This document shows positions 22,172 to 32,209 of a stretch of 64,000 nt of DNA, one piece after another (positions within the stretch are counted from its first letter, which is position 1; the number at the start of each line of letters is the position of its first letter). Source of the stretch: Escherichia phage Paul; the sequence record NC_070992.1, one strand, 5' to 3'. Both the position numbers and the translations under genes were made by a program. The notes below the pieces were generated by a model, which did not search any database, had not been told where the DNA came from, and saw only the letters and a list, made by a program, of their open reading frames with translations.

Positions 22172-23206
22172 ATGGCATATGGAATATGGACAACGCCAGT
22201 CGGACCGGGACCGGCTTCTCCGGCTGAGCTTTTTATTGACAGTGATACCACCTTTCCTCAATTTAAGAATAGGGTCAGTGGTAATTATAACTTTAATGGA
22301 GGCAGTAGAGATTTCCCTATTTCTGGATGGGATGGCTCAGGCCAAATCGTTGTAGTACCTACTGGCTCTTTATGTTGGCAATGGGAAGTCCCTCCTAACC
22401 TTGTCCCTGATGTGTATGTTGTAAATAATATCAGTATTGTGAATAACTCAACTTTCAGAGTTAGCATAAATATGAATCCCGGAAGTAACCCATTGTTTGA
22501 TGTAGCTTTTAATGTGTATCAAATATGGCCTAGGGCTAACAGAAACTACGGGATAACCTTTTCAAACACAGCTGATTACTTCTCTATATCAGATGCTGGA
22601 GTTGTTGGTCAATGTATTTGGGCTTGGGAAGGAAATATTAATGGCTCCATGCAAATACCAGCAATCAGTGGTTTTGATATGTCTAGGGCTTCAGTGTTTG
22701 CTAACTGGTCTGGAGGACAAGGTTTACTCTATGATGCTGGGAGTCGTAATATCAGGGTTTACCAAAACAGAACCTACGATAACGGAAACAACAACCAAAC
22801 AGGAACAATCAATAATGTGAGAGTTGCAGTGTTCTGTAATGGGGCTGGTGTTCCTACTCACAATGGGGGATTAAACATATATTCACCTAATGGTTCTCAG
22901 TGTGTATTTTCTACTTACAGAACACCTTTTATGGTTGATCGTTTTATGGCTATGAGTGGAGGGAATACTGGACTTACATATCCTATGATACCTCTGACAA
23001 ACGGAGCAGGTTCTATTAGAGGTCAGGCGGGGAGTTGGTATTTCCAACATGCTAGATCTCATACGATGAACGGCTCTTCTTTTGGTACAGGGTATGGTCG
23101 ATATATGTTCCAGTGGGATAGAAACTACGATATGGGTGGTGGTGGAGCTATCTCCCTTCAGGTTCCAGTCCTAGATGCTAGGAAAATTTTTAGAAGCATA
23201 CAATAA
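22172..23206 (+). CDS. virion structural protein (344 aa)
   Basis: ORF in structural operon; Gly/Asn-rich beta-type composition. Confidence 0.4.
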   Translation: MAYGIWTTPVGPGPASPAELFIDSDTTFPQFKNRVSGNYNFNGGSRDFPISGWDGSGQIVVVPTGSLCWQWEVPPNLVPDVYVVNNISIVNNSTFRVSINMNPGSNPLFDVAFNVYQIWPRANRNYGITFSNTADYFSISDAGVVGQCIWAWEGNINGSMQIPAISGFDMSRASVFANWSGGQGLLYDAGSRNIRVYQNRTYDNGNNNQTGTINNVRVAVFCNGAGVPTHNGGLNIYSPNGSQCVFSTYRTPFMVDRFMAMSGGNTGLTYPMIPLTNGAGSIRGQAGSWYFQHARSHTMNGSSFGTGYGRYMFQWDRNYDMGGGGAISLQVPVLDARKIFRSIQ

Positions 23207-23215
23207 GGAGAACTT

Positions 23216-23998
23216 ATGGCAATTAGAATGGGTATAGAAGAACTAGACCCGATGGTTCAACAGGCTTCAAAGAAGTATGGTATACCAGCTGCTTTGATTC
23301 ATGCTGTAATTCAAAGGGAGTCTAGTGGTCGTCCTAAGGTAGCTTCCGGAACTGGTCCTGTTGGTTTGATGCAGATCAGTAAAGGGTTAGCTAAAGATTA
23401 TGGTTATAAACTAGAAGATAGGCTTGACCCAGCCAAGAATATCGACATGGGTGCTCGCTATATCAGAGACAATCTTAAAGCTTTTAATGGTGATGTTAAG
23501 AAAGCAATGGTTGGCTATTCAGAAGGTATTGGTGGAGCTAAGCAGATGTTCGCTGGTAAAAGAGGGTTTACCCCTCAGGCTCTTGACTCTATGAACAACA
23601 AACACTTCCTTCCTTTCTATGGTGATGCAGCTTCTCAGATTGCTAATCCTATTGGGGCTTTACAAGCTGTTCAACCAGTCAACCAGTTTAGTCCTGATAC
23701 TCTAGACAGAGAGAAGGCTGCACAAGCTCCAACTCAGGCAGAGATTGCTGCTTCTAAGACAGGAGCTTTAGGAGGTAATCCGGTAGAGTTTTACTCTGAT
23801 GAAGTGCAGGAAGGGGAAGACCAGAAGCCTCAACAGAACTTTGGTAATGCAGTATTAGGAGTAGCTGCTATGCTTGCTGGTAAACCCCCTACTTCTCAAA
23901 CAGTTCAGAGGGCAAGTGCACCACATGCAGCAGGTTCTCAGTACAGTCCACAAACACAAGCAGTGCTCAGGCGTTTGGCTAGCATTGGTGTAAAGTAA
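23216..23998 (+). CDS. internal virion protein with lytic transglycosylase (SLT) domain
   Basis: ESSGRP ... GLMQI ... DYGY pattern of soluble lytic transglycosylases; SD AAGGAG. Confidence 0.7.
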   Translation: MAIRMGIEELDPMVQQASKKYGIPAALIHAVIQRESSGRPKVASGTGPVGLMQISKGLAKDYGYKLEDRLDPAKNIDMGARYIRDNLKAFNGDVKKAMVGYSEGIGGAKQMFAGKRGFTPQALDSMNNKHFLPFYGDAASQIANPIGALQAVQPVNQFSPDTLDREKAAQAPTQAEIAASKTGALGGNPVEFYSDEVQEGEDQKPQQNFGNAVLGVAAMLAGKPPTSQTVQRASAPHAAGSQYSPQTQAVLRRLASIGVK

Positions 23999-24017
23999 TA
24001 ATCTTTAAGGAGGACTT

Positions 24018-25070
24018 ATGTCTTTATTTGGAAAATCAGCTTCTAGCAAAACCACAGTGGCTCCTTCCTCTCAGGTTGATGCCCTGCTGAAGCAGATTGT
24101 TGCTAATGCTCAGAATATGCAGAACAACGATCCGGGATTCATCTCCCAACAGCTGGCTGGGTTTAATGGCAACCAACAGGGTGCTCTGAATAACTTAGCA
24201 GCTTCTACAACTCAGAAGCAATTGGCTGATATGTACACACCTCGTACACAGCAAGGACTGGACCAACTAAACGCTCTTGCTCAACAGTATCAGAATATTG
24301 TCAATGGTGGTGGTCTAACTGCTGATGGTGTTAATAACTTTAGTAAAGGGTTGAATAACTCAGCTCTTGCTCAAGCTACTAGTAAGGCAGCTTCCAATGT
24401 ATCTCTCGGAAATGGCTCCGACTCTGGCTCTCTTCGTAGAGCTGCTGCTCAAGGTGCTGCCCTGAACGGTGCTAATACAAACTTAGCTCGTACTATCAGT
24501 GGTAAGAACATGGGAATCAGTGCTCTTCAACAAGACCAAAACTTCCAGAGAGGCTTACTTGGTGCTCAGTCAGGGTTGGCTGGACAGAATCTCAATCTTG
24601 GTGCTCAGGGTGTTCAAGCAACTCAACAAGCCATCCAGAATCAACTCATGGCTGGTAATCTACAACAGCAGCAAGCTCAGGCTCAAGCTGATATTAATTG
24701 GCAGAACGCTATTGGCTCTCAGCAGTATGGATGGAATCAGCTTAACAACCAACTTAATGTATTAAACAGTGTAAGTCCAATGGCTGGATATACAATTAAG
24801 AATGCCGCTCCGGGTGTTAACACAGGACAGCAGATTCTCGGTGCTGGTATTACTGGATTAGGTATTGCAGGTCGTATGGGCGCTTTCTCTCCTAACCAAC
24901 AGACTCAGAATGCTTGGAGTTCCTATAATAATTCAGGTGGGCAATCTGGCATGGCTGGTCCTATGATTGGAGGTTCTAATCTTTCTCAACAGAGAGGTCA
25001 GTCTAACTGGTTATCCACAGCAGGTAGTAATATCTTAGGTGGGGTCTTAGGGGCATTCGGAGCAAACTAA
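24018..25070 (+). CDS. Q/N-rich internal virion protein (350 aa)
   Basis: SD AAGGAGG; low-complexity Q/N/G/A-rich; Gly-rich hydrophobic C-terminus; paralogous to the next gene. Confidence 0.45.
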   Translation: MSLFGKSASSKTTVAPSSQVDALLKQIVANAQNMQNNDPGFISQQLAGFNGNQQGALNNLAASTTQKQLADMYTPRTQQGLDQLNALAQQYQNIVNGGGLTADGVNNFSKGLNNSALAQATSKAASNVSLGNGSDSGSLRRAAAQGAALNGANTNLARTISGKNMGISALQQDQNFQRGLLGAQSGLAGQNLNLGAQGVQATQQAIQNQLMAGNLQQQQAQAQADINWQNAIGSQQYGWNQLNNQLNVLNSVSPMAGYTIKNAAPGVNTGQQILGAGITGLGIAGRMGAFSPNQQTQNAWSSYNNSGGQSGMAGPMIGGSNLSQQRGQSNWLSTAGSNILGGVLGAFGAN

Positions 25071-25082
25071 AGGAGATTTAAT

Positions 25083-26051
25083 ATGGCTTTATTCGGAGGC
25101 GGAGGTAGTAAAACTACTTCCCAAATGATTCGCCCTGAATACATTAAACAGTATATTGACCAGCTTAATAAGCAGATTGGTAATACTAGTTCAGGGGATT
25201 ATGTTTATCGAGATAATATAGGGTTTAATAATAATCAGACAGAGGCACTTAATAACCTAGCACAATCTGGCGCTCTAGGCACTCTCTCACAGCAATACAT
25301 GGATGCAGCAGGTCAAGGCTTGGGTTATCTAGATAATGCCTATAAAGGCTATCAGAGCCTCTCTGGTCAAGGTGGTATTACTGGAGAACAGATTGGTGCT
25401 CTCGCTGGTCAACTGTATGATGATGACGCTGTGCAAGCAGCCATTACAGCTAATAACGAACAGGTTCAACAGAACTTAGCACGTAATGCTCTTCCTCAGT
25501 TAGCTCAACAGTTTGCTGGTCAACAAGGTTCAGGTGCTCGTATGGCTAAATCTTTTGCCCAAGGTGATGCTCTGAATCAGATGCAAGGTCAAGCAACAGA
25601 TATCACCAACAGTGCCTATAACTCGGCTATTAGTCAAGCTGAAAGTATCCTCTCTGGTAATAGACAGAATCAGGCAGCTGCTCTCTCAGGTCTTTCTACT
25701 ATTGGTTCTAACCTTTCCAATTTAGGTCAACAAGGTGCTGATTTATCTCAACAGCAAATACTAAACCAATGGAAGGCTGGGTTGCAGCAACAACAGCAAC
25801 AACAGAATGAATATGATAATGCCTACCAGAATGCTCAGAACGCAGCTAACTGGGGATGGCAGGATATTAACAACCAACTAGGTGCAGCAGGTGTACTTAA
25901 CGGCGCTCTCGGACAAACTACAACCACTAAAACATCTGGTGGCAAAGGTGGTTTCCTTGGTGGAGCTATGAGTGGTGCAGCAGCAGGTTCTTCCTTTGGG
26001 CCTTGGGGTGCATTGGCTGGGGGTGTAATCGGTGGGTTGGCTAGTAATTAA
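25083..26051 (+). CDS. Q/N-rich internal virion protein, paralog (322 aa)
   Basis: shares N-terminal SKTT and ALNNLA segments and Gly-rich C-terminus with 24018-25070. Confidence 0.45.
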   Translation: MALFGGGGSKTTSQMIRPEYIKQYIDQLNKQIGNTSSGDYVYRDNIGFNNNQTEALNNLAQSGALGTLSQQYMDAAGQGLGYLDNAYKGYQSLSGQGGITGEQIGALAGQLYDDDAVQAAITANNEQVQQNLARNALPQLAQQFAGQQGSGARMAKSFAQGDALNQMQGQATDITNSAYNSAISQAESILSGNRQNQAAALSGLSTIGSNLSNLGQQGADLSQQQILNQWKAGLQQQQQQQNEYDNAYQNAQNAANWGWQDINNQLGAAGVLNGALGQTTTTKTSGGKGGFLGGAMSGAAAGSSFGPWGALAGGVIGGLASN

Positions 26052-26064
26052 TTAGGAGACAAAT

Positions 26065-27720
26065 ATGCAACAGACAACTTACGCTCAGGTCAGAAGTCGT
26101 GACCCGAGAAATACTTTCTATGGTGTTAATCCGGGAGCGGCTTCGGCCTCTCCTTATATGGCTAGACCTACTCAGACAGCAGATGTTTCTATGTACCAGC
26201 GTCCTGCTGTACCTTCATCTCTCGCAGGTCTTGTCTCTCAAGCAGAAGAAGATCAGAATGCTATGGTGAATCCGGGATTTCAGCAACGTCTTATGGAACA
26301 ACAGAATCAAGGAACCCCAACAAGTCTTCAGGGTATTGATATTGGAGAACCAGCCACTGTAGCAGCTAATCCTAATTTATCCACTGATCAAGGTTTACAA
26401 GATGCGGGACTTATGCCTAGTGATCCTCTTCCGGTAACACCCCCTACTAAACCACTAGAAGCTGGTCCTATGGAGTTTACTCCTTCTCAAGTAGAACAAG
26501 CACAAGGTGTTGTTAACACTCTTGCTCAAGGTCAGGACACTGGTGATGGTATGGCTGCTGCTACTCGTGCTAAAGATCAGGAACGTGTTAACAACGATAT
26601 CTTGCAAGTTGCGAAAGCTAAAGACCCTTCAGAAGCTTGGAACAAACTACAGAAAGAACCATTCTATCAGAACTCTAGTTTCTATACAGGTTTGATGGGT
26701 GTAGGTCTTTCCATTATGTCAGGTAAGTCTCCTATTGAAGCTTTCCAGATTGGTCAGGGAATGGCTAACCAAGATGAGACTAAGAAGCAACTAGAAGCTA
26801 ATCGTGATGCCCTGATTGAACAAGGTTTCTCTCAAGACTCAATTGCAGCTGCTATTGCTAACGGAGACCCATCTCTACTGAAGATGAGAGCTGTAGACCC
26901 TGCTCAGAAAGAAGCGTTGTATGCTGCTCGTGAAGAACGACAAAATGCTGAATGGGATAGACGTCAACAGATTCAAGAGCAAACTATGCGTGAGCGTGCT
27001 GATGAAACTCGTCGTGCCGCTGAAGAAAGGGCTAACATGAACTTCGAACGTCAGAAAGAGTTGATTGGCTATCGTGATAAAGTTAAGGCTGAACGTGCTG
27101 AACAAGCTGCTCAGAGTTTTAACTTTAATCCGAAAGAAGTTCGTCTTGCTCAGAACACAGCTGAAGGTACGGTTGCTAAGCAGTGGGCAGAGAAAGGTGG
27201 TCTGTTTAACCAGTCTAACAAAGACTTGGATTTGGCTGATAAGGCTGTTAAGGATAAAGATTATCAGACAGCTCGTTCTGCTTACATGCAGGCTATTATG
27301 AACTCCGCAAGGGCTGAAATCGGTGCTACTCGTTCTCTTACCGAAGAAGACTTGGGGCACTTTGCAGAAGACCCGTCAATCTTCGTTCGTGTTGGCAACA
27401 AGTTTGCACTGAAATCTGGATGGCGTCCTACTGATTCTGCTCTTGCTTATGCTCGTAAGCAGGCTAACGTTGGTCACACCTCTGCAATGAAAGGTGTTGC
27501 TGATGCTAAGAGAGCTACGATTGAAGCTTATATTGGTTCTGGTATGGATAAGAAGAGGGCTACTGCATTGGTCAACCGTGCAATCCCTTCTGGCGGTTTC
27601 TATGACCCTCTAGGTGTTTTCTCTGAACAAGCGGAAGAAGCAGTTGGTGGTGCAGCAACCAATCCTAAGCTTAATGGTGCTTTATCAGCTGTCGAAGACA
27701 CTAGCTGGTTCACTCAATAA
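26065..27720 (+). CDS. internal virion / ejection protein (551 aa)
   Basis: SD TAGGAG; position among internal proteins; helical charged C-terminal half. Confidence 0.45.
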   Translation: MQQTTYAQVRSRDPRNTFYGVNPGAASASPYMARPTQTADVSMYQRPAVPSSLAGLVSQAEEDQNAMVNPGFQQRLMEQQNQGTPTSLQGIDIGEPATVAANPNLSTDQGLQDAGLMPSDPLPVTPPTKPLEAGPMEFTPSQVEQAQGVVNTLAQGQDTGDGMAAATRAKDQERVNNDILQVAKAKDPSEAWNKLQKEPFYQNSSFYTGLMGVGLSIMSGKSPIEAFQIGQGMANQDETKKQLEANRDALIEQGFSQDSIAAAIANGDPSLLKMRAVDPAQKEALYAAREERQNAEWDRRQQIQEQTMRERADETRRAAEERANMNFERQKELIGYRDKVKAERAEQAAQSFNFNPKEVRLAQNTAEGTVAKQWAEKGGLFNQSNKDLDLADKAVKDKDYQTARSAYMQAIMNSARAEIGATRSLTEEDLGHFAEDPSIFVRVGNKFALKSGWRPTDSALAYARKQANVGHTSAMKGVADAKRATIEAYIGSGMDKKRATALVNRAIPSGGFYDPLGVFSEQAEEAVGGAATNPKLNGALSAVEDTSWFTQ

Positions 27721-27740
27721 GACCTAAGTCCTGCCTTCTA

Positions 27741-27749
27741 TAATGTATA
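27741..27749 (+). promoter_or_regulatory. TAATGTATA motif, candidate phage-sigma promoter element
   Basis: exact 9-mer 38 nt upstream of the ATG at 27788. Confidence 0.45.
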
Positions 27750-27787
27750 TAGGGGGTAGGACATTTTTATTTATAAAAGGAGACGTT

Positions 27788-30700
27788 ATGGCTAACATTA
27801 AACCGTGGGAAGAAGCTTCCAAAGCTCCTGCGTATCTGAATGCCTCTCCGGAGCAACAAGCTCAAATGAGAGAACAATATAAGGCAGCAGGTGGCTCTAT
27901 TCCTGAGGAACAACCAGTAGCACAACCACAACAAGAAGAACGTGGTGCTATAGGTGAGTTTGCTCAAGGTGTGTCAAATGCTCTTCAATCCGGTGGTGCA
28001 AATATTGCAGCTAGTGCTGCTAAAGGTATTGGTGGTTTAGTTGAGATTGGTGAGAATCTAGCTGGAGCACAAACTAGTTACGGTAAGCGTATCCAAGAAA
28101 ACTCTCAGAACCTTCTGAAAGAACGTATGGATAAGATTGAGGATGGGATTGGTAAAACTGTTGGTCAGTATGCTGGTGTTGCTGGTGATATTGGTATGAC
28201 TGTTGCTAACCCATTAGCTGCTGCTGCTATCATCGCAGGTCGTGAGACAGGTCGTGCATATGCAGACCAAACCCCTGAAGAGGGAGAAGATAAGTCTATT
28301 CTAGATGCAGCCTTAGTTGGTGGTGCTAACTATGCGGCTCAGAGAATCCTTCCGGGTGCTGTTGGTACAGCTGAGTCCACACTTGGACGTATCGGTCAGA
28401 ACGTTGCTAGTAACGCAGTGGCTGGTGCTAAAGGCGGTGCTCTTGTAGGTGCTGCTGAAGCTCAGAACAAGCATGGAGATGATACAACCTTTGCTAATGT
28501 ATTAGAGGGTGCTATCGAAGAAGGTGCTATGGGTGCTGCATTCGGTGGTGCAGTTGGTGGGGTTCACGGTTTGATTAGCCGTCCGGATTCTGCTGTCTTC
28601 AAGAATACTCCAGAGTATGCGAAGACTGATATTGCTGCTGATGACGAACTGATTCGTAGTGCTAAGAATGTTGATGAATTGAAAGAGGCTTACTCTAAAG
28701 CTGAAACTGCTAACGCTGCTTCTGCTCTGAACCTTCTCGATGAGAATGGATTCCGTATTACAGATGCTGTTGCTGTAGATTCTCCTCCTGCTCAGCGTAT
28801 TCTTAATACTGACCAAGCTCGTGCTGAGAAAGCTGCTTCCGTTCAGAAAGAGCATTCCAACATTCCGGGCCTTAATCCTTTAGCTTCTCCTGCTAAGACT
28901 CGTGGTAAAGCTTTCGCTGATAATGAGCACAACCAGAAGCAGGCTGTTGCTATGAAGGATGCAATGGCTGATTACACCAAAGACAACACGAAAGCTCTTA
29001 CAGATGTTCTAGATAACCTAGATCGTGAATTAACATCCCTACGAGCTTCTGGTAATTTTACTGGTAGTCCGATTGATATTAAGAATCGTACACAAGCTGA
29101 CCGTGACTTCATTGATGCTTACAAGACTTTCTACAATGAAGCAAATCGATTCAAAGCTCGTGAAGGTGAAGACTTTAATAACTTTGTAGAGAAAGCTGCT
29201 GAACTACAAAAGATGGCTGATAATGTTTCTCCAGAGATGAAGAAAGCTATCGGTGGGTTGAAGAAACTGAAAGGTATGCCTGAAGGTTTTAATCCTATCC
29301 AAGATGCTTACACTCTGAACAATACAGCTAAGTTCATGAGCAATCAAGATCGTGGTTGGACTTCCCTGACTGATGATGGCTTCCGTGAGGCTTCTTCACC
29401 TAGTCTGGTAATGAACACTCTCGGTGCTGCTAAGTATGCTCTGAATCGCTTCTCTTCTCAGCGTGCTCGCTCTCAACGTGTTAAGCAACAAGAATCTAAC
29501 AGTGAAGCTATCCGCTCTCTTGCTCGTGGTGATTTGGAAGTTGCTCGTGCTAAATCTACTGCTGATGAAGCTCGTGCTAAGATGGAAGAAGAACCAGTTG
29601 TTGATGACATTAAATTTAAGACGCAAAATGACGTGGAAACCGAACCGGTTCGGGAGCCTTCTTCTAGTACTGTGACGGAAGAAAATCTTCCTTCTTCTGC
29701 TCCTCAAGAAACCCCTCTTACAGCTCGTGATTTAGTTGCGCAAAGACGTGCTATCCGTCAGGCTGAACAGCGTCGCGCTGAAGAAGAGGCATTGGCTGCT
29801 CAAGAAGCTCCGGTCGAACAAGCTCCACAGGCTGAACCTCTCCCTGCTCGTAATCCTTTAGAGGAGCGTCGTGCAATGGAACAGCAACGTGCTCAAGAAG
29901 AGGCCGCACAGGCTCCAGAACCCACTGTAGAGGAACCAACAGTTAAAGCTGAGCCATTACCTGCCCGTGCTCCTAAAGCTCCTAAGGAAGCTGTACAGGA
30001 CGTTAAACCGGCAAGTGGTGTAGAACGTTTAGCTGCTATGTCTAGTGCTGCTCGTCAGGCTACCAAAGATCGTGCAGAACGCTTTGCTCGTTCTCTGTAC
30101 TCTAAGGCTGCTAAAGCTAAAGCTACTGCTGAAAACTTCTTGGCTTATAAAGGTGATCCTAAGGAATTGATGCGTCGTATTCGTCAGGAAGATAATGCTA
30201 TCAACACTGAACGTCATGAAGAAATGGCTCGTAACCAGCTGGCTTCTCAGCAAGGTATTGCTACTGCTAAGAACAACACTGTACGAACTAATTTTGCTGA
30301 ATGGGTTAAGGAACGTGGTCTGCCAGAAGACATTGCTACTAAGGCATTACGTGCTGAAGAGAAAGGTTTAGGTGGGAACGTTACTAACTTGGATAGTCTG
30401 AAACGTCGTGCTGAAAGGTTGTATCAGAAGCAGCGTGAGGATGAATTTGATAGATTGTATCAACAAGCTCTAGAAGAGAACAAAGCTTTCGATAAGAAAG
30501 ATGCTCCTAAACTGGTTGACCAGAAGAAAGAGCTTCAGTCTGAGATTGATACTTTGATTGATTCTGAACCTTTACGTCCTGCTCAGAAAGATGCTATGCG
30601 TAAGCTGATGAATGACTTTGTAGATGGGAAGTTTAAATCTTCAGAGAAGGCTGGTAGGGAAGAGGCTTTGGAAGTTGGTCAGATGAAGGATATTTGGGAT

Positions 30701-32209
30701 GGGTTTATTAACACCTATAACAGAGAAGTGAATGCCTTCAACAAAGCTAACAAGAACTCTCAGTATGAAGCTGCTGCTAAGCATTTACAGGCTCGTGAAG
30801 AACGTCTTGCTACTCTGAGAAACAAAGCTCAGGCTCGTTCAGATGCTAAGGCTGCTGTTGAGAACGAACGTAAAACTTTAGAGGCTATTGCAGCTCAGAA
30901 GAGTGAGATTGAGAAGATGATGGAAGGTTTACCTAAACCTGTTCGTGAGGCTCAGGAATCTCGTACATTGAAACAGTTGGCTGCTCACCACGATAAGAAC
31001 TCTCCAGTTCCTCCAGAGAAGTTCCGTAGTTACATTGAACGTATCCATAACGCCGAGTCAGACTACCTTGATCGTCAGCGTCGTTTAACTGATGCAGAGG
31101 AAGATGCTCGTCAGGCCAAGTGGAACAAGATGTATGAGCAAGCGGAAGAAATGAACCGTAAGTTTGATGTGGACAAGAGAGTTAAGCGCAGTGAAGAGCT
31201 TAAAGCGGCCCAAGAGCGTGAGAATGACCTTATGGCAGTACAACGTCAACGTGATGACATTCATCGCCGCCTGATGCGTACTATGGAAGATAAGGGCATA
31301 TCTAGAGAGGATGCTGAAGCATTTGCTGGTTCCTATATGGATAACCGTTATGCACTTCTTGAGAAGCCTATGACTCCTACTGAACATCAGAATGCTCGTT
31401 CTCGTATCGAAGCTGATGTTGAGAAGTTTGCTAAGAAGTACGAATCAATGACTCCTATCGAGAAAGAGATTGTTAAGGTTACTGGAGATACTGAAGGTAA
31501 GCTTGATAACTTGGATGCGGATACTAGGAAGGCTATTGAGGAGGCTCAGAAGGTTGACTCTGATATTAAGAAACTGCAAGAGGAAGAGTTGGAGATGGAG
31601 AAGATTCGTTCTGCTCTGCCTGATGATGAAAGATCTCAAGCAAATTCTGATATCTTGGAAAGCATTAAACAACAGGAAGAGGTCTTTGCTGATAAAGTAG
31701 AGAAAGCTTTCTTGAGTGGGAAGAGCTTGGATGAGTTGGCTAGTGTGGCTGAAGTTTTAGACAGGGTTCATGGTGCAGATAAGGCTGGTAACAACCGTCG
31801 CTTTGTACGTGCATTGCAGACTGCTGCTGAAAACAAGAAGAAGTATGGTGATAATCCAGTAGCTTGGTTTAGTGCTGATGATTATTCTGCTATTGCTAAA
31901 CTTGGTGCTTCTTCCGCAGGTGGTAACAAATCTAGAGCACTGGAGAAGATCTTTGGTTCTACAGCTGAACAGGCTAAGAGTAAGTTGCTTGGCAGGGATG
32001 ATGTAGCGAAGATGAGACGTGTGATTGAAGAGAACCCTGATGTTAAGATTCCTTCTTACAAGACAACGAATCGTACTGAGTACTTGCAGTTCTTGGAGAA
32101 GTTTAATGACGAAGGGAAGCCGAAGATTAAACGTGGCTCATTGTCAGAGAAGCTTGAACGCAGTAAGCGTCAATCGAGACTCCGTGTAAGAGTTCGACCT
32201 AAGGAGTGA
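27788..32209 (+). CDS. large internal virion / ejection protein (about 1473 aa)
   Basis: start set at ATG 27788 with SD AAGGAG (track start 27743 lacks SD); Ala-rich helical coiled-coil composition. Confidence 0.5.
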   Translation: MANIKPWEEASKAPAYLNASPEQQAQMREQYKAAGGSIPEEQPVAQPQQEERGAIGEFAQGVSNALQSGGANIAASAAKGIGGLVEIGENLAGAQTSYGKRIQENSQNLLKERMDKIEDGIGKTVGQYAGVAGDIGMTVANPLAAAAIIAGRETGRAYADQTPEEGEDKSILDAALVGGANYAAQRILPGAVGTAESTLGRIGQNVASNAVAGAKGGALVGAAEAQNKHGDDTTFANVLEGAIEEGAMGAAFGGAVGGVHGLISRPDSAVFKNTPEYAKTDIAADDELIRSAKNVDELKEAYSKAETANAASALNLLDENGFRITDAVAVDSPPAQRILNTDQARAEKAASVQKEHSNIPGLNPLASPAKTRGKAFADNEHNQKQAVAMKDAMADYTKDNTKALTDVLDNLDRELTSLRASGNFTGSPIDIKNRTQADRDFIDAYKTFYNEANRFKAREGEDFNNFVEKAAELQKMADNVSPEMKKAIGGLKKLKGMPEGFNPIQDAYTLNNTAKFMSNQDRGWTSLTDDGFREASSPSLVMNTLGAAKYALNRFSSQRARSQRVKQQESNSEAIRSLARGDLEVARAKSTADEARAKMEEEPVVDDIKFKTQNDVETEPVREPSSSTVTEENLPSSAPQETPLTARDLVAQRRAIRQAEQRRAEEEALAAQEAPVEQAPQAEPLPARNPLEERRAMEQQRAQEEAAQAPEPTVEEPTVKAEPLPARAPKAPKEAVQDVKPASGVERLAAMSSAARQATKDRAERFARSLYSKAAKAKATAENFLAYKGDPKELMRRIRQEDNAINTERHEEMARNQLASQQGIATAKNNTVRTNFAEWVKERGLPEDIATKALRAEEKGLGGNVTNLDSLKRRAERLYQKQREDEFDRLYQQALEENKAFDKKDAPKLVDQKKELQSEIDTLIDSEPLRPAQKDAMRKLMNDFVDGKFKSSEKAGREEALEVGQMKDIWDGFINTYNREVNAFNKANKNSQYEAAAKHLQAREERLATLRNKAQARSDAKAAVENERKTLEAIAAQKSEIEKMMEGLPKPVREAQESRTLKQLAAHHDKNSPVPPEKFRSYIERIHNAESDYLDRQRRLTDAEEDARQAKWNKMYEQAEEMNRKFDVDKRVKRSEELKAAQERENDLMAVQRQRDDIHRRLMRTMEDKGISREDAEAFAGSYMDNRYALLEKPMTPTEHQNARSRIEADVEKFAKKYESMTPIEKEIVKVTGDTEGKLDNLDADTRKAIEEAQKVDSDIKKLQEEELEMEKIRSALPDDERSQANSDILESIKQQEEVFADKVEKAFLSGKSLDELASVAEVLDRVHGADKAGNNRRFVRALQTAAENKKKYGDNPVAWFSADDYSAIAKLGASSAGGNKSRALEKIFGSTAEQAKSKLLGRDDVAKMRRVIEENPDVKIPSYKTTNRTEYLQFLEKFNDEGKPKIKRGSLSEKLERSKRQSRLRVRVRPKE

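Follow-up and report, generated by a model that had tools for sequence, protein, structure and literature searches.

Adjacent paralogous Gln/Asn-rich ejection proteins with Gly-rich C-terminal tails in Escherichia phage Paul

Two neighbouring genes of Escherichia phage Paul (sequence record NC_070992.1), designated here A and B, encode proteins of very unusual composition that end in Gly-rich hydrophobic tails, and the question raised by this locus is what such a pair contributes to infection. The whole stretch of DNA analysed, 64,000 nucleotides (nt) in length, is referred to below as the window. A preliminary description, made from the sequence alone, had taken the two products to be paralogous internal virion proteins with "Gly-zipper" C-termini, for which a prion-like composition and membrane-like tails suggested a role in a channel. 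The evidence assembled here indicates that A and B are almost certainly ejection proteins; that they form a membrane-proximal pore is a reading for which we consider the chances to be about even.

Two paralogous ejection proteins

The window is 97% identical at the nucleotide level to the Kuravirus Escherichia phage vB_EcoP_IMEP8, and 91-94% identical to dozens of further Kuravirus genomes, including LAMP and 172-1. Protein A shares 97-99% identity with its SU10 and phiEco32 counterparts, and protein B is ~97% identical to its Kuravirus orthologues over the part left by the BLAST low-complexity filter. The orthologues of A are SU10 gp21 (ACQ52_gp021) and phiEco32 gp23 (phi32_23), those of B are SU10 gp22 (ACQ52_gp022) and phiEco32 gp24 (phi32_24), and all four carry the RefSeq label "DNA ejection protein". 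The order of the genes (transglycosylase, A, B, a protein of 551 amino acids (aa) and a protein of ~1473 aa) is the same in the window, SU10 and phiEco32. The neighbours are those given in the preliminary description, namely an SLT-domain protein (PF01464, E=7e-24) on the 5' side and the two large proteins on the 3' side.

Published data on SU10 bear directly on both proteins. By liquid chromatography-tandem mass spectrometry, gp21 (35.9 kDa, 53% coverage) and gp22 (33.3 kDa, 49% coverage; called "DNA injection protein") were detected (Mirzaei et al. 2014, PMC4281155); the calculated masses of A and B are 35.8 and 33.3 kDa, respectively. All of the products gp20-24 were found in virions and were missing from particles after genome release (Siborova et al., PMC9509320). 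Absence from virions had been named beforehand as the result that would speak against an internal location; in the published proteomics the 97%-identical SU10 orthologues are present, and their loss at genome release agrees with the assignment as internal virion or ejection proteins. This identity was already known from annotation, proteomics and the structural study of SU10.

Both proteins matched the phrog_4287 profile ("DNA ejection protein") over most or all of their length: A with E=2e-117 (residues 1-350 on profile positions 1-392) and B with E=3e-108 (residues 1-310 on positions 1-321). Searches of Pfam and NCBIfam returned no family for either. The paralogy claimed at the outset was borne out by composition-adjusted BLASTP, in which A and B are 32% identical over 273 aa (E=3e-13); since the adjusted comparison still aligns 273 residues, the relationship is not an artefact of composition. 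The common N-terminal segments are likewise present, SKTT at residues 10-13 of A and 9-12 of B, and ALNNLA at 56-61 and 55-60. At the DNA level, a repeat search of A against B revealed no long repeat, and no recent duplication or gene conversion; the sole trace is a 26-nt repeat (D3, 81%) at the GW.Q(L/I)NNQL block, from which the duplication is judged to be old. A and B arose by an old tandem duplication within one family of ~300-aa proteins. The two open reading frames (ORFs) lie on the plus strand exactly where the preliminary description had placed them, and the genes are closely coupled, in that the first base of the Shine-Dalgarno site of B is also the final base of the A stop codon (Table 1).

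The extreme composition was evaluated against the 52 non-overlapping ORFs of at least 100 aa in the window (mean +/- standard deviation). Gln and Asn together (Q+N) account for 26.6% of A and 23.9% of B, versus 9.9 +/- 4.1%; Q+N+G+A+S for 62.9% and 60.6%, versus 31.2 +/- 8.6%; and the charged residues (K+R+D+E) for only 6.6% and 9.9%, versus 24.3 +/- 6.2%. In all three measures (the last by scarcity) the two proteins rank first and second in the window, and neither contains Cys or His. Their net charges are of opposite sign (Table 1), and the sign has been retained among the orthologues (P0001-P0096): 44 of 46 A-type proteins are positive and all 43 B-type proteins negative. Such opposite charge suggests either a hetero-complex or different environments for the two proteins.

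Two alignments were used to define the anatomy of the family: A1, a joint alignment of A-type and B-type orthologues, and A3, which also takes in relatives that bear a Peptidase_S74 domain. Word-seeded searches reached A-type and B-type orthologues down to ~40% identity, and the two types were found together on the same 13-82-kb contigs. In A1, an M-x-LFG-Gn-(S/T)TT motif at the N-terminus is followed by an AG(L/F)N..Q..AL..L motif and a long Q/N-rich centre; then come a QN.L.AGN.QQQ...N..W/YQNA.G.Q..GW.Q(L/I)NNQLN block, a G-x-TTT linker and a Gly-rich hydrophobic segment. Protein B stops with this segment, and A runs ~55 residues further to a second, similar one, which is conserved as I(L/F)GGVLGAFGA in the closer A-type orthologues. 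In the alignments, the counterpart of the first segment of A is the tail, both in B and in the S74-bearing relatives. The N-terminal motif of A also recurs in distant relatives.

Conservation was computed on orthologues less than 70% identical. In B, conservation is highest over the last 60 residues (identity of 0.70-0.78, versus 0.37-0.65 elsewhere), which argues that the tail is under selection and is not a drifting low-complexity sequence. In A the maximum, 0.84, falls in the block at residues 241-260. The Gly-rich hydrophobic tails of the preliminary description were found again at A 273-291, A 331-350 and B 289-322. The term "Gly-zipper" is a descriptive one, however, since the tails are rich in Gly but match no glycine-zipper family of Pfam. 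AlphaFold 2 models, of low confidence, are all-helical with unstructured tails and contain one long helix, at residues 191-251 of A and 199-271 of B. Structure prediction, which had been proposed as a check, accordingly yielded a helical Q/N-rich body and no usable fold.

Relatives beyond the Kuraviruses

When 1.84 billion representatives were searched exhaustively with a profile, 521 proteins were returned at E<=0.001, 72 of them at <=1e-10. The ~300-aa module begins in the first few residues of nearly all of the full-length matches listed, and later in a handful (at the latest, residues 147-178); this consistent N-terminal position argues that the matches are not purely compositional. Many of the module-bearing proteins are 800-2000 aa long, and several of the long relatives match phrog_4287 by themselves (E=1e-13 to 1e-43). 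Downstream of the module, P0148 carries a Hydrolase_2 domain (residues 534-652) and P0219 a Phage_lysozyme2 domain (1506-1648), both peptidoglycan hydrolase domains, and fusion to cell-wall hydrolases is in keeping with activity in the envelope. In the phage record that contains a P0148 relative, the gene is called "internal virion protein D" and directly follows an acetyltransferase-like gene.

Peptidase_S74 (PF13884), which starts with S-D-x-R-x-K, serves endosialidases and tail fibres as an intramolecular chaperone that also cleaves itself off. A scan for this motif in the 240 family proteins fetched gave 25 matches, of which 23, each in a different protein, lie directly after the Gly-rich tail; the remaining two are far downstream and unrelated. 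Relatives with this junction are found among P0044, P0050, P0117, P0122-P0132 and P0145-P0229 and include gp20 of Salmonella phage 7-11 (L003, 8986-10224); some of them add cell-wall hydrolase domains. The Pfam S74 model scored 39.7 bits for P0148 (residues 294-345), 40.1 bits for P0050 (280-326) and 20.5 bits for 7-11 gp20 (328-383; E=6e-4, just below the cut-off), and a profile search of PDB with A3 retrieved S74 domains only, namely those of MYRF (7dc3), S16 gp37 (6f45) and the GA-1 appendage (3gud). No Peptidase_S74 domain was found in A or B with Pfam.

The junction coincides with the end of B. The tail of P0050, ...GGAAAGSSFGPWGAVAGGVLGVL, directly followed by SDERLK, is nearly identical to the C-terminus of B, ...GAAAGSSFGPWGALAGGVIGGLASN, which is followed by the stop codon; in A3, B ends one column before the cleavage-site Ser, and the first tail of A (...MGAF-S) aligns with ...MGAF and the following SD of the relatives. 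The tail is placed at a free C-terminus by the stop codon in B, and would be so placed by the S74 cleavage site in these relatives. Judging from these alignments, self-cleavage in the S74-bearing proteins would leave a mature protein with a free Gly-rich C-terminus, the form that B encodes directly. Cleavage by S74 requires trimerisation, and oligomers in multiples of three are plausible on that account. Our literature searches found no paper connecting S74 domains or glycine zippers with ejection proteins.

Two metagenomic contigs retain the gene arrangement. A 59.9-kb Logan contig (L008), distant from the window, encodes an SU10-type capsid and portal and also the five-gene cassette, in the order SLT protein, 333-aa protein, B-type protein and proteins of 490 and 1108 aa. 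On another contig (L009), an S74-bearing member comes right after SU10-type adaptor and tail genes. As a separate observation, a B-type homologue of 44% identity (P0041) is recorded by NCBI on a 317,682-bp contig of Enterobacter cloacae, which may hold an integrated relative or be an assembly chimera.

The family also extends to the Bruynogheviruses. Against a family hidden Markov model (HMM) iterated over 240 sequences, gp53 of LUZ24 (313 aa, "phage particle protein") scored 49.5 bits (E=2.5e-17), full-length and collinear; the best of 1000 shuffles of the same protein reached 8.6 bits. In BLASTP, LUZ24 gp53 matched the intermediate family members P0208 (3e-13) and P0100 (2e-7), and the PHROG profiles cross-matched in both directions (LUZ24 gp53 to phrog_4287, 2e-10; 7-11 gp20 to phrog_7477, 2e-4). 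On this sequence evidence LUZ24 gp53, a phrog_7477 member, belongs to the same superfamily as A and B, in a different PHROG. Neither LUZ24 gp50-52 nor T7 gp13-16 nor P22 gp14, gp7, gp20 and gp16 were detected with the family HMM.

LUZ24 gp53 is presumably the equivalent of gp56 of Pa223, a 313-residue Bruynoghevirus virion protein described as a putative T7 gp14-like outer-membrane channel, with transmembrane helices predicted by MemBrain at residues 278-291 and 296-311 and a nonameric channel modelled by AlphaFold 3 (preprint 10.1101/2025.06.11.659172). These positions correspond to the Gly-rich tail of LUZ24 gp53. The LUZ24 genes run from an acetyltransferase-like gp54 through gp53 and gp52 to gp51 (505 aa) and gp50 (1055 aa), an order that parallels T7 gp13-14-15-16 and P22 gp14-7-20-16, in which the first gene is acetyltransferase-like (PMC4819975). 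The family member precedes the larger ejection proteins in Kuravirus, LUZ24, L008 and L009. An acetyltransferase-like gene was seen directly 5' of the family member in Bruynogheviruses (LUZ24 gp54; L005, 13180-13614) and in MW202675 (L004, 8507-9001), as in the IVP-A/IVP-B arrangement of internal virion proteins (IVPs) known from T7 and P22; in the Kuravirus window no such gene precedes A.

With P22 gp7 (229 aa; PF25688, phrog_598) the resemblance is concentrated at the C-terminus. The end of gp7, ...GSSTPWGAAIGGGIGLLGSLF, aligns end to end with P0175 (70.6%, 17 aa, E=1e-3), and also with P0048 (44% over 43 aa, E=8e-3) and with B orthologues (66.7% over 15 aa); a PWGA..GG.IG C-terminal motif is common to gp7 and the family. 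It was further observed that gp7 (L007, 1370-2059) ends ...SSTPWGAAIGGGIGLLGSLF, strikingly like the tail of B, ...SSFGPWGALAGGVIGGLASN, in an end-to-end alignment. Common descent of P22 gp7 with the A/B family is possible on the basis of these similarities; a functional analogy between them would hold independently of descent.

A proposed membrane-proximal pore and its alternatives

The mechanism that we propose assigns the two parts of each protein to successive steps. Each would consist of a Q/N-rich, low-charge, mostly alpha-helical body ending in the conserved Gly-rich hydrophobic tail, and both would be packaged in the prolate head alongside the SLT enzyme and the large 551-aa and ~1473-aa products of the neighbouring genes. 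At infection they would be expelled through the opened nozzle, leaving first once the needle is gone, so as to fill the "small, membrane-active, first-encoded" slot occupied by T7 gp14, P22 gp7, DEV gp73 and Pa223 gp56. The helical bodies would then refold and oligomerise, probably as an A/B hetero-oligomer, given that the opposite charge is conserved, and the C-terminal tails would insert into a host membrane, most likely the outer one. The resulting pore would form the first segment of a trans-envelope conduit for DNA, prolonged by the 551-aa and ~1473-aa proteins, with the SLT enzyme cutting the cell wall meanwhile. Insertion, the choice of membrane, the stoichiometry and the hetero-oligomerisation are what we infer from the data above. 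A channel role is a plausible one: it is the published working model for SU10, and the sequence homology to Bruynoghevirus gp53/gp56 and the P22 gp7 tail motif would strengthen it.

Several results weigh against a pore. The tails are only moderately hydrophobic, with Kyte-Doolittle 19-residue means of 0.9-1.2, below those of a classical transmembrane helix. Against the Pfam glycine-zipper families PF13441 (Gly-zipper_YMGG) and PF05433 (Glycine zipper 2TM), the tail of B alone gave E=4.7 and 2.3 and that of A no match; in the relative P0117 the values were 0.012 and 0.021, which falls far short of the curated cut-offs. The AlphaFold 2 monomer models built with family alignments have mean predicted local distance difference test scores (pLDDT) of 46 (A) and 45 (B), and Foldseek searches with them of PDB and BFVD gave nothing at E<=0.001, as is expected at such low model confidence; PDB sequence searches with A and B gave nothing meaningful. 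Of the classical pore formers, T7 gp14 (phrog_805) scored -9.4 with the family HMM, less than shuffled versions of itself, and P22 gp7 scored -7.0; neither A nor B matched PF25688, the gp7 family, at E<=0.1, and hhalign against a gp7 alignment gave low probabilities over short stretches, 2.6% for the ALNN motif (34 columns) and 31.7% for the tail (23 columns; E=5e-4). Pa223 gp56 was equated with LUZ24 gp53 by length, genus and gene position and not by the Pa223 sequence, and its outer-membrane assignment is itself bioinformatic (10.1101/2025.06.11.659172). Contact of SU10 gp21 or gp22 with a membrane is likewise an inferred step. Lastly, A and B are about twice the size of the classical gp14-like proteins and come as a pair; given this size and number, their function may extend beyond that of a pore.

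Four other explanations were considered, only one of which is serious, and it ranks below the pore. According to this one, A and B are tube or extension subunits whose bodies polymerise below the nozzle across the periplasm, the tails only docking to the inner membrane or to other ejection proteins. The SU10 authors propose that the ejection proteins prolong the nozzle across the periplasm (PMC9509320), the bodies are predicted as long helices like those of periplasmic-tunnel proteins, both proteins exceed the classical 150-240-aa pore formers of the outer membrane, and paralogues of complementary charge could stack. We nevertheless hold a tube of A and B to be unlikely, because the 551-aa neighbour is a better match to the tunnel in size and order (431-982 aa in other podophages) and because conservation is strongest in the hydrophobic tail rather than in the body. 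Moreover, the gp14 slot of the Bruynogheviruses is occupied by their homologue, the tunnel being a protein of its own (505 aa). The conserved tail is also hard to explain in a DNA cushion, and this, together with the fusion of the module to cell-wall hydrolases in relatives and the synteny with dedicated ejection genes across several podophage groups, makes it quite improbable that A and B are mainly internal head proteins, which would organise or cushion the genome or plug the portal, and would leave the head passively without any function in the envelope. Consistent with such a role are the location in the head, where the SU10 ejection proteins were not resolved in the cryo-electron microscopy maps (PMC9509320), the polar, low-charge, Q/N-rich composition, which could suit a filler adjacent to DNA, and the basic nature of A, which could bind DNA.

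The S74 junction raises the further question of whether the proteins are external, trimeric and fibre-like. Tail spikes and fibres are where S74 domains typically occur, as in the PDB matches (S16 gp37, the GA-1 appendage and MYRF), and P0148 also matches phrog_1980, "tail fiber protein" (E=2e-5). A and B themselves lack the domain, however, the module is fused to lysozymes and located among the genes of internal proteins, and SU10 gp21 and gp22 leave the particle with the genome, the tail having been modelled without them (PMC9509320); an external fibre is consequently very improbable. The least probable explanation, to which we give almost no credence, is that prion- or amyloid-like self-assembly is the function itself. 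The content of Q+N (24-27%), the lack of Cys and His and the very few charges are what one would look for, but the Q/N-rich stretches are predicted (at low confidence, by AlphaFold 2) to be helical, and position-specific motifs are kept down to ~40% identity, unlike the composition-only conservation of prion domains. Of the label "prion-like", the Q/N enrichment remains and the implied role finds no support, with a body predicted to be helical and a composition that is a conserved trait of the family.

Beyond the pore itself, a broader proposal may be offered, which we regard as doubtful. The phrog_4287-type module would represent a widespread "long IVP-B" class, the working end of which is a membrane-inserting tail that is needed at the end of the chain. 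In many lineages the free end would be provided by trimerisation-dependent S74 self-cleavage, which would also release a downstream lysozyme or other cargo; in the Kuraviruses the protease would have disappeared and the gene been duplicated, the pair now serving as an acidic/basic hetero-oligomeric pore, and P22 gp7 would be a shortened member.

The ejection cassette and comparison with known systems

The coordinates of the two genes, their motifs and the remaining genes of the cassette are collected in Table 1.

Table 1. Features of the ejection cassette, in window coordinates (KD19, Kyte-Doolittle mean over 19 residues).
Feature	Position	Strand	Description and basis
SLT lytic transglycosylase	23216..23998	+	Orthologue of SU10 gp20, first of five ejection genes; PF01464 E=7e-24, phrog_12507
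Shine-Dalgarno site of gene A, AAGGAGG	24007..24013	+	4 nt 5' of the ATG of A; sequence read directly
Gene A	24018..25070	+	350-aa Q/N/G/A/S-rich ejection protein; basic, isoelectric point (pI) 9.9, net charge +7; ORF, phrog_4287, Kuravirus identity, synteny, charge
N-terminal family motif of A, MSLFGKSASSKTT	24018..24056	+	Conserved M-x-LFG-Gn-(S/T)TT in A1 and A3
ALNNLA of A, aa 56-61	24183..24200	+	A56 invariant, L57 nearly so (at least 90%) in A1
GWNQLNNQL block of A, aa 238-246	24729..24755	+	End of long predicted helix; N244 invariant in A1
First Gly-rich hydrophobic segment of A, aa 273-291, ILGAGITGLGIAGRMGAFS	24834..24890	+	KD19=1.2; A1, A3
Second Gly-rich tail of A, aa 331-350, ...ILGGVLGAFGAN	25008..25067	+	KD19=1.03; end of A-specific extension
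Shine-Dalgarno site of gene B, AAGGAG	25070..25075	+	7 nt 5' of the ATG of B; sequence read directly
Gene B	25083..26051	+	322-aa paralogue of A; acidic, pI 4.5, net charge -6; ORF, phrog_4287, Kuravirus identity, synteny, charge
N-terminal family motif of B, MALFGGGGSKTT	25083..25118	+	Alignments A1 and A3
ALNNLA of B, aa 55-60	25245..25262	+	A/B BLASTP and A1
GWQDINNQL block of B, aa 258-266	25854..25880	+	A1, conservation, DNA repeat
Gly-rich tail of B, aa 289-322, GGFLGGAMSGAAAGSSFGPWGALAGGVIGGLASN	25947..26048	+	Most conserved part of B (identity 0.73-0.78); A3
551-aa ejection protein	26065..27720	+	Orthologue of SU10 gp23; phrog_12130
~1473-aa ejection protein	27788..32209	+	Orthologue of SU10 gp24; phrog_14629 on residues 16-1488; SU10/phiEco32 annotation

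By its size and gene order, the 551-aa protein is a candidate component of the periplasmic tunnel. No pairwise similarity was detected between this protein and LUZ24 gp51, or between the 1488-aa product of the largest gene (taken from the mechanical ORF start at 27743) and LUZ24 gp50, so that the tunnel and inner-membrane assignments of the two large proteins are made from size and order. In the largest gene the family match begins at residue 16 (MANIKPW, 27788). A strong terminator-like hairpin (27728-27762; 15 pairs, 6 of them G-C), followed by ATTTTTATTT, with the T-run reaching to ~27772, was noted between the genes of the 551-aa and ~1473-aa proteins. The mechanical start falls within this hairpin, and the profile together with the SU10 and phiEco32 annotation places the start at 27788; attenuation of transcription by the hairpin, ahead of the largest ejection gene, is a possibility.

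Gly/Ala-rich hydrophobic patches were also seen in the other members of the cassette, at residues 212-230 of the SLT protein (AVLGVAAMLAGK...), 209-227 of the 551-aa protein (GLMGVGLSIMSGK...), and 146-164 and 261-279 of the large protein (GAMGAAFGGAVGGVHGLIS), and such patches may be a trait common to the whole cassette. Just 5' of the SLT gene, a DUF6453 protein (22172-23206; "membrane protein", phrog_1265) is the third least charged in the window, with 11% K+R+D+E.

For the window itself these results contain nothing new: it is that of an ordinary Kuravirus, and both genes were correctly read as encoding ejection proteins of a well-studied genus. The additions are modest and lie at the level of the family, mostly in relatives outside the window: the Bruynoghevirus link, the S74 junction, the gp7-like tail and the complementarity of charge. 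One family would join the "small" ejection proteins of the Kuraviruses, the 7-11-like phages, the Bruynogheviruses and possibly P22 gp7, which could be useful for work on podophage ejectosomes, and the C-terminal tail is pointed to as its conserved business end. The sequences further suggest S74 self-cleavage as a maturation step in many uncultured phages, and an A/B hetero-complex is predicted in Kuraviruses, candidate therapeutic phages that include SU10.

Among the known systems, SU10 gp21/gp22 and phiEco32 gp23/gp24 are the closest, with the same lengths, masses and gene order and a sequence difference of 1-3%; nothing material differs, and the window represents another isolate of Kuravirus. 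Gp20 of Salmonella phage 7-11 and its relatives (GAP52, A24 and Aeromonas phages; Grimontviridae) belong to the same family (phrog_4287, E=2e-136; family HMM, E=1e-58) and have the N-terminal motif, helical body, GGTxxT linker and Gly-rich tail of A and B. In contrast to A and B, 7-11 gp20 carries the S74-like domain right after the tail, no SLT gene adjoins it, and one family member was present in the 19-kb structural stretch examined, versus two in Kuravirus. From this comparison with the sister group, the Kuravirus state, with two copies and no S74 domain, looks derived.

LUZ24 gp53 has in common with the A/B family a GGS..TT start, a GSSRAGVAEG motif, the Gly-rich C-terminal tail and a gene located before those of larger ejection proteins; it differs in its N-terminal extension of ~25 residues, its single copy and its identity of less than 30%. 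P22 gp7, the T7 gp14-like "IVP-B" of that phage, is, like A and B, an ejected virion protein rich in Q, N, A and G. Its gene is the first in the ejection block, and the protein contains GGKGG just after its processed N-terminus, which the N-terminal motif of A resembles, and a QALNNYYNS motif, to which the ALNNLA of A gave a weak local hhalign match. At 229 aa, however, it is shorter than the 322-350 aa of A and B, and no significant full-length similarity was found. Pore formation in bilayers is known for T7 gp14 and DEV gp73, and partitioning into lipid nanodiscs has been reported for P22 gp7. For A and B, T7 gp14 and DEV gp73 would serve as a working analogy only, DEV gp73 being likened by description: small helical proteins of ~150-200 aa, encoded 5' of the tunnel and inner-membrane proteins, which are expelled first and insert into the membrane as a hexameric or nonameric channel.

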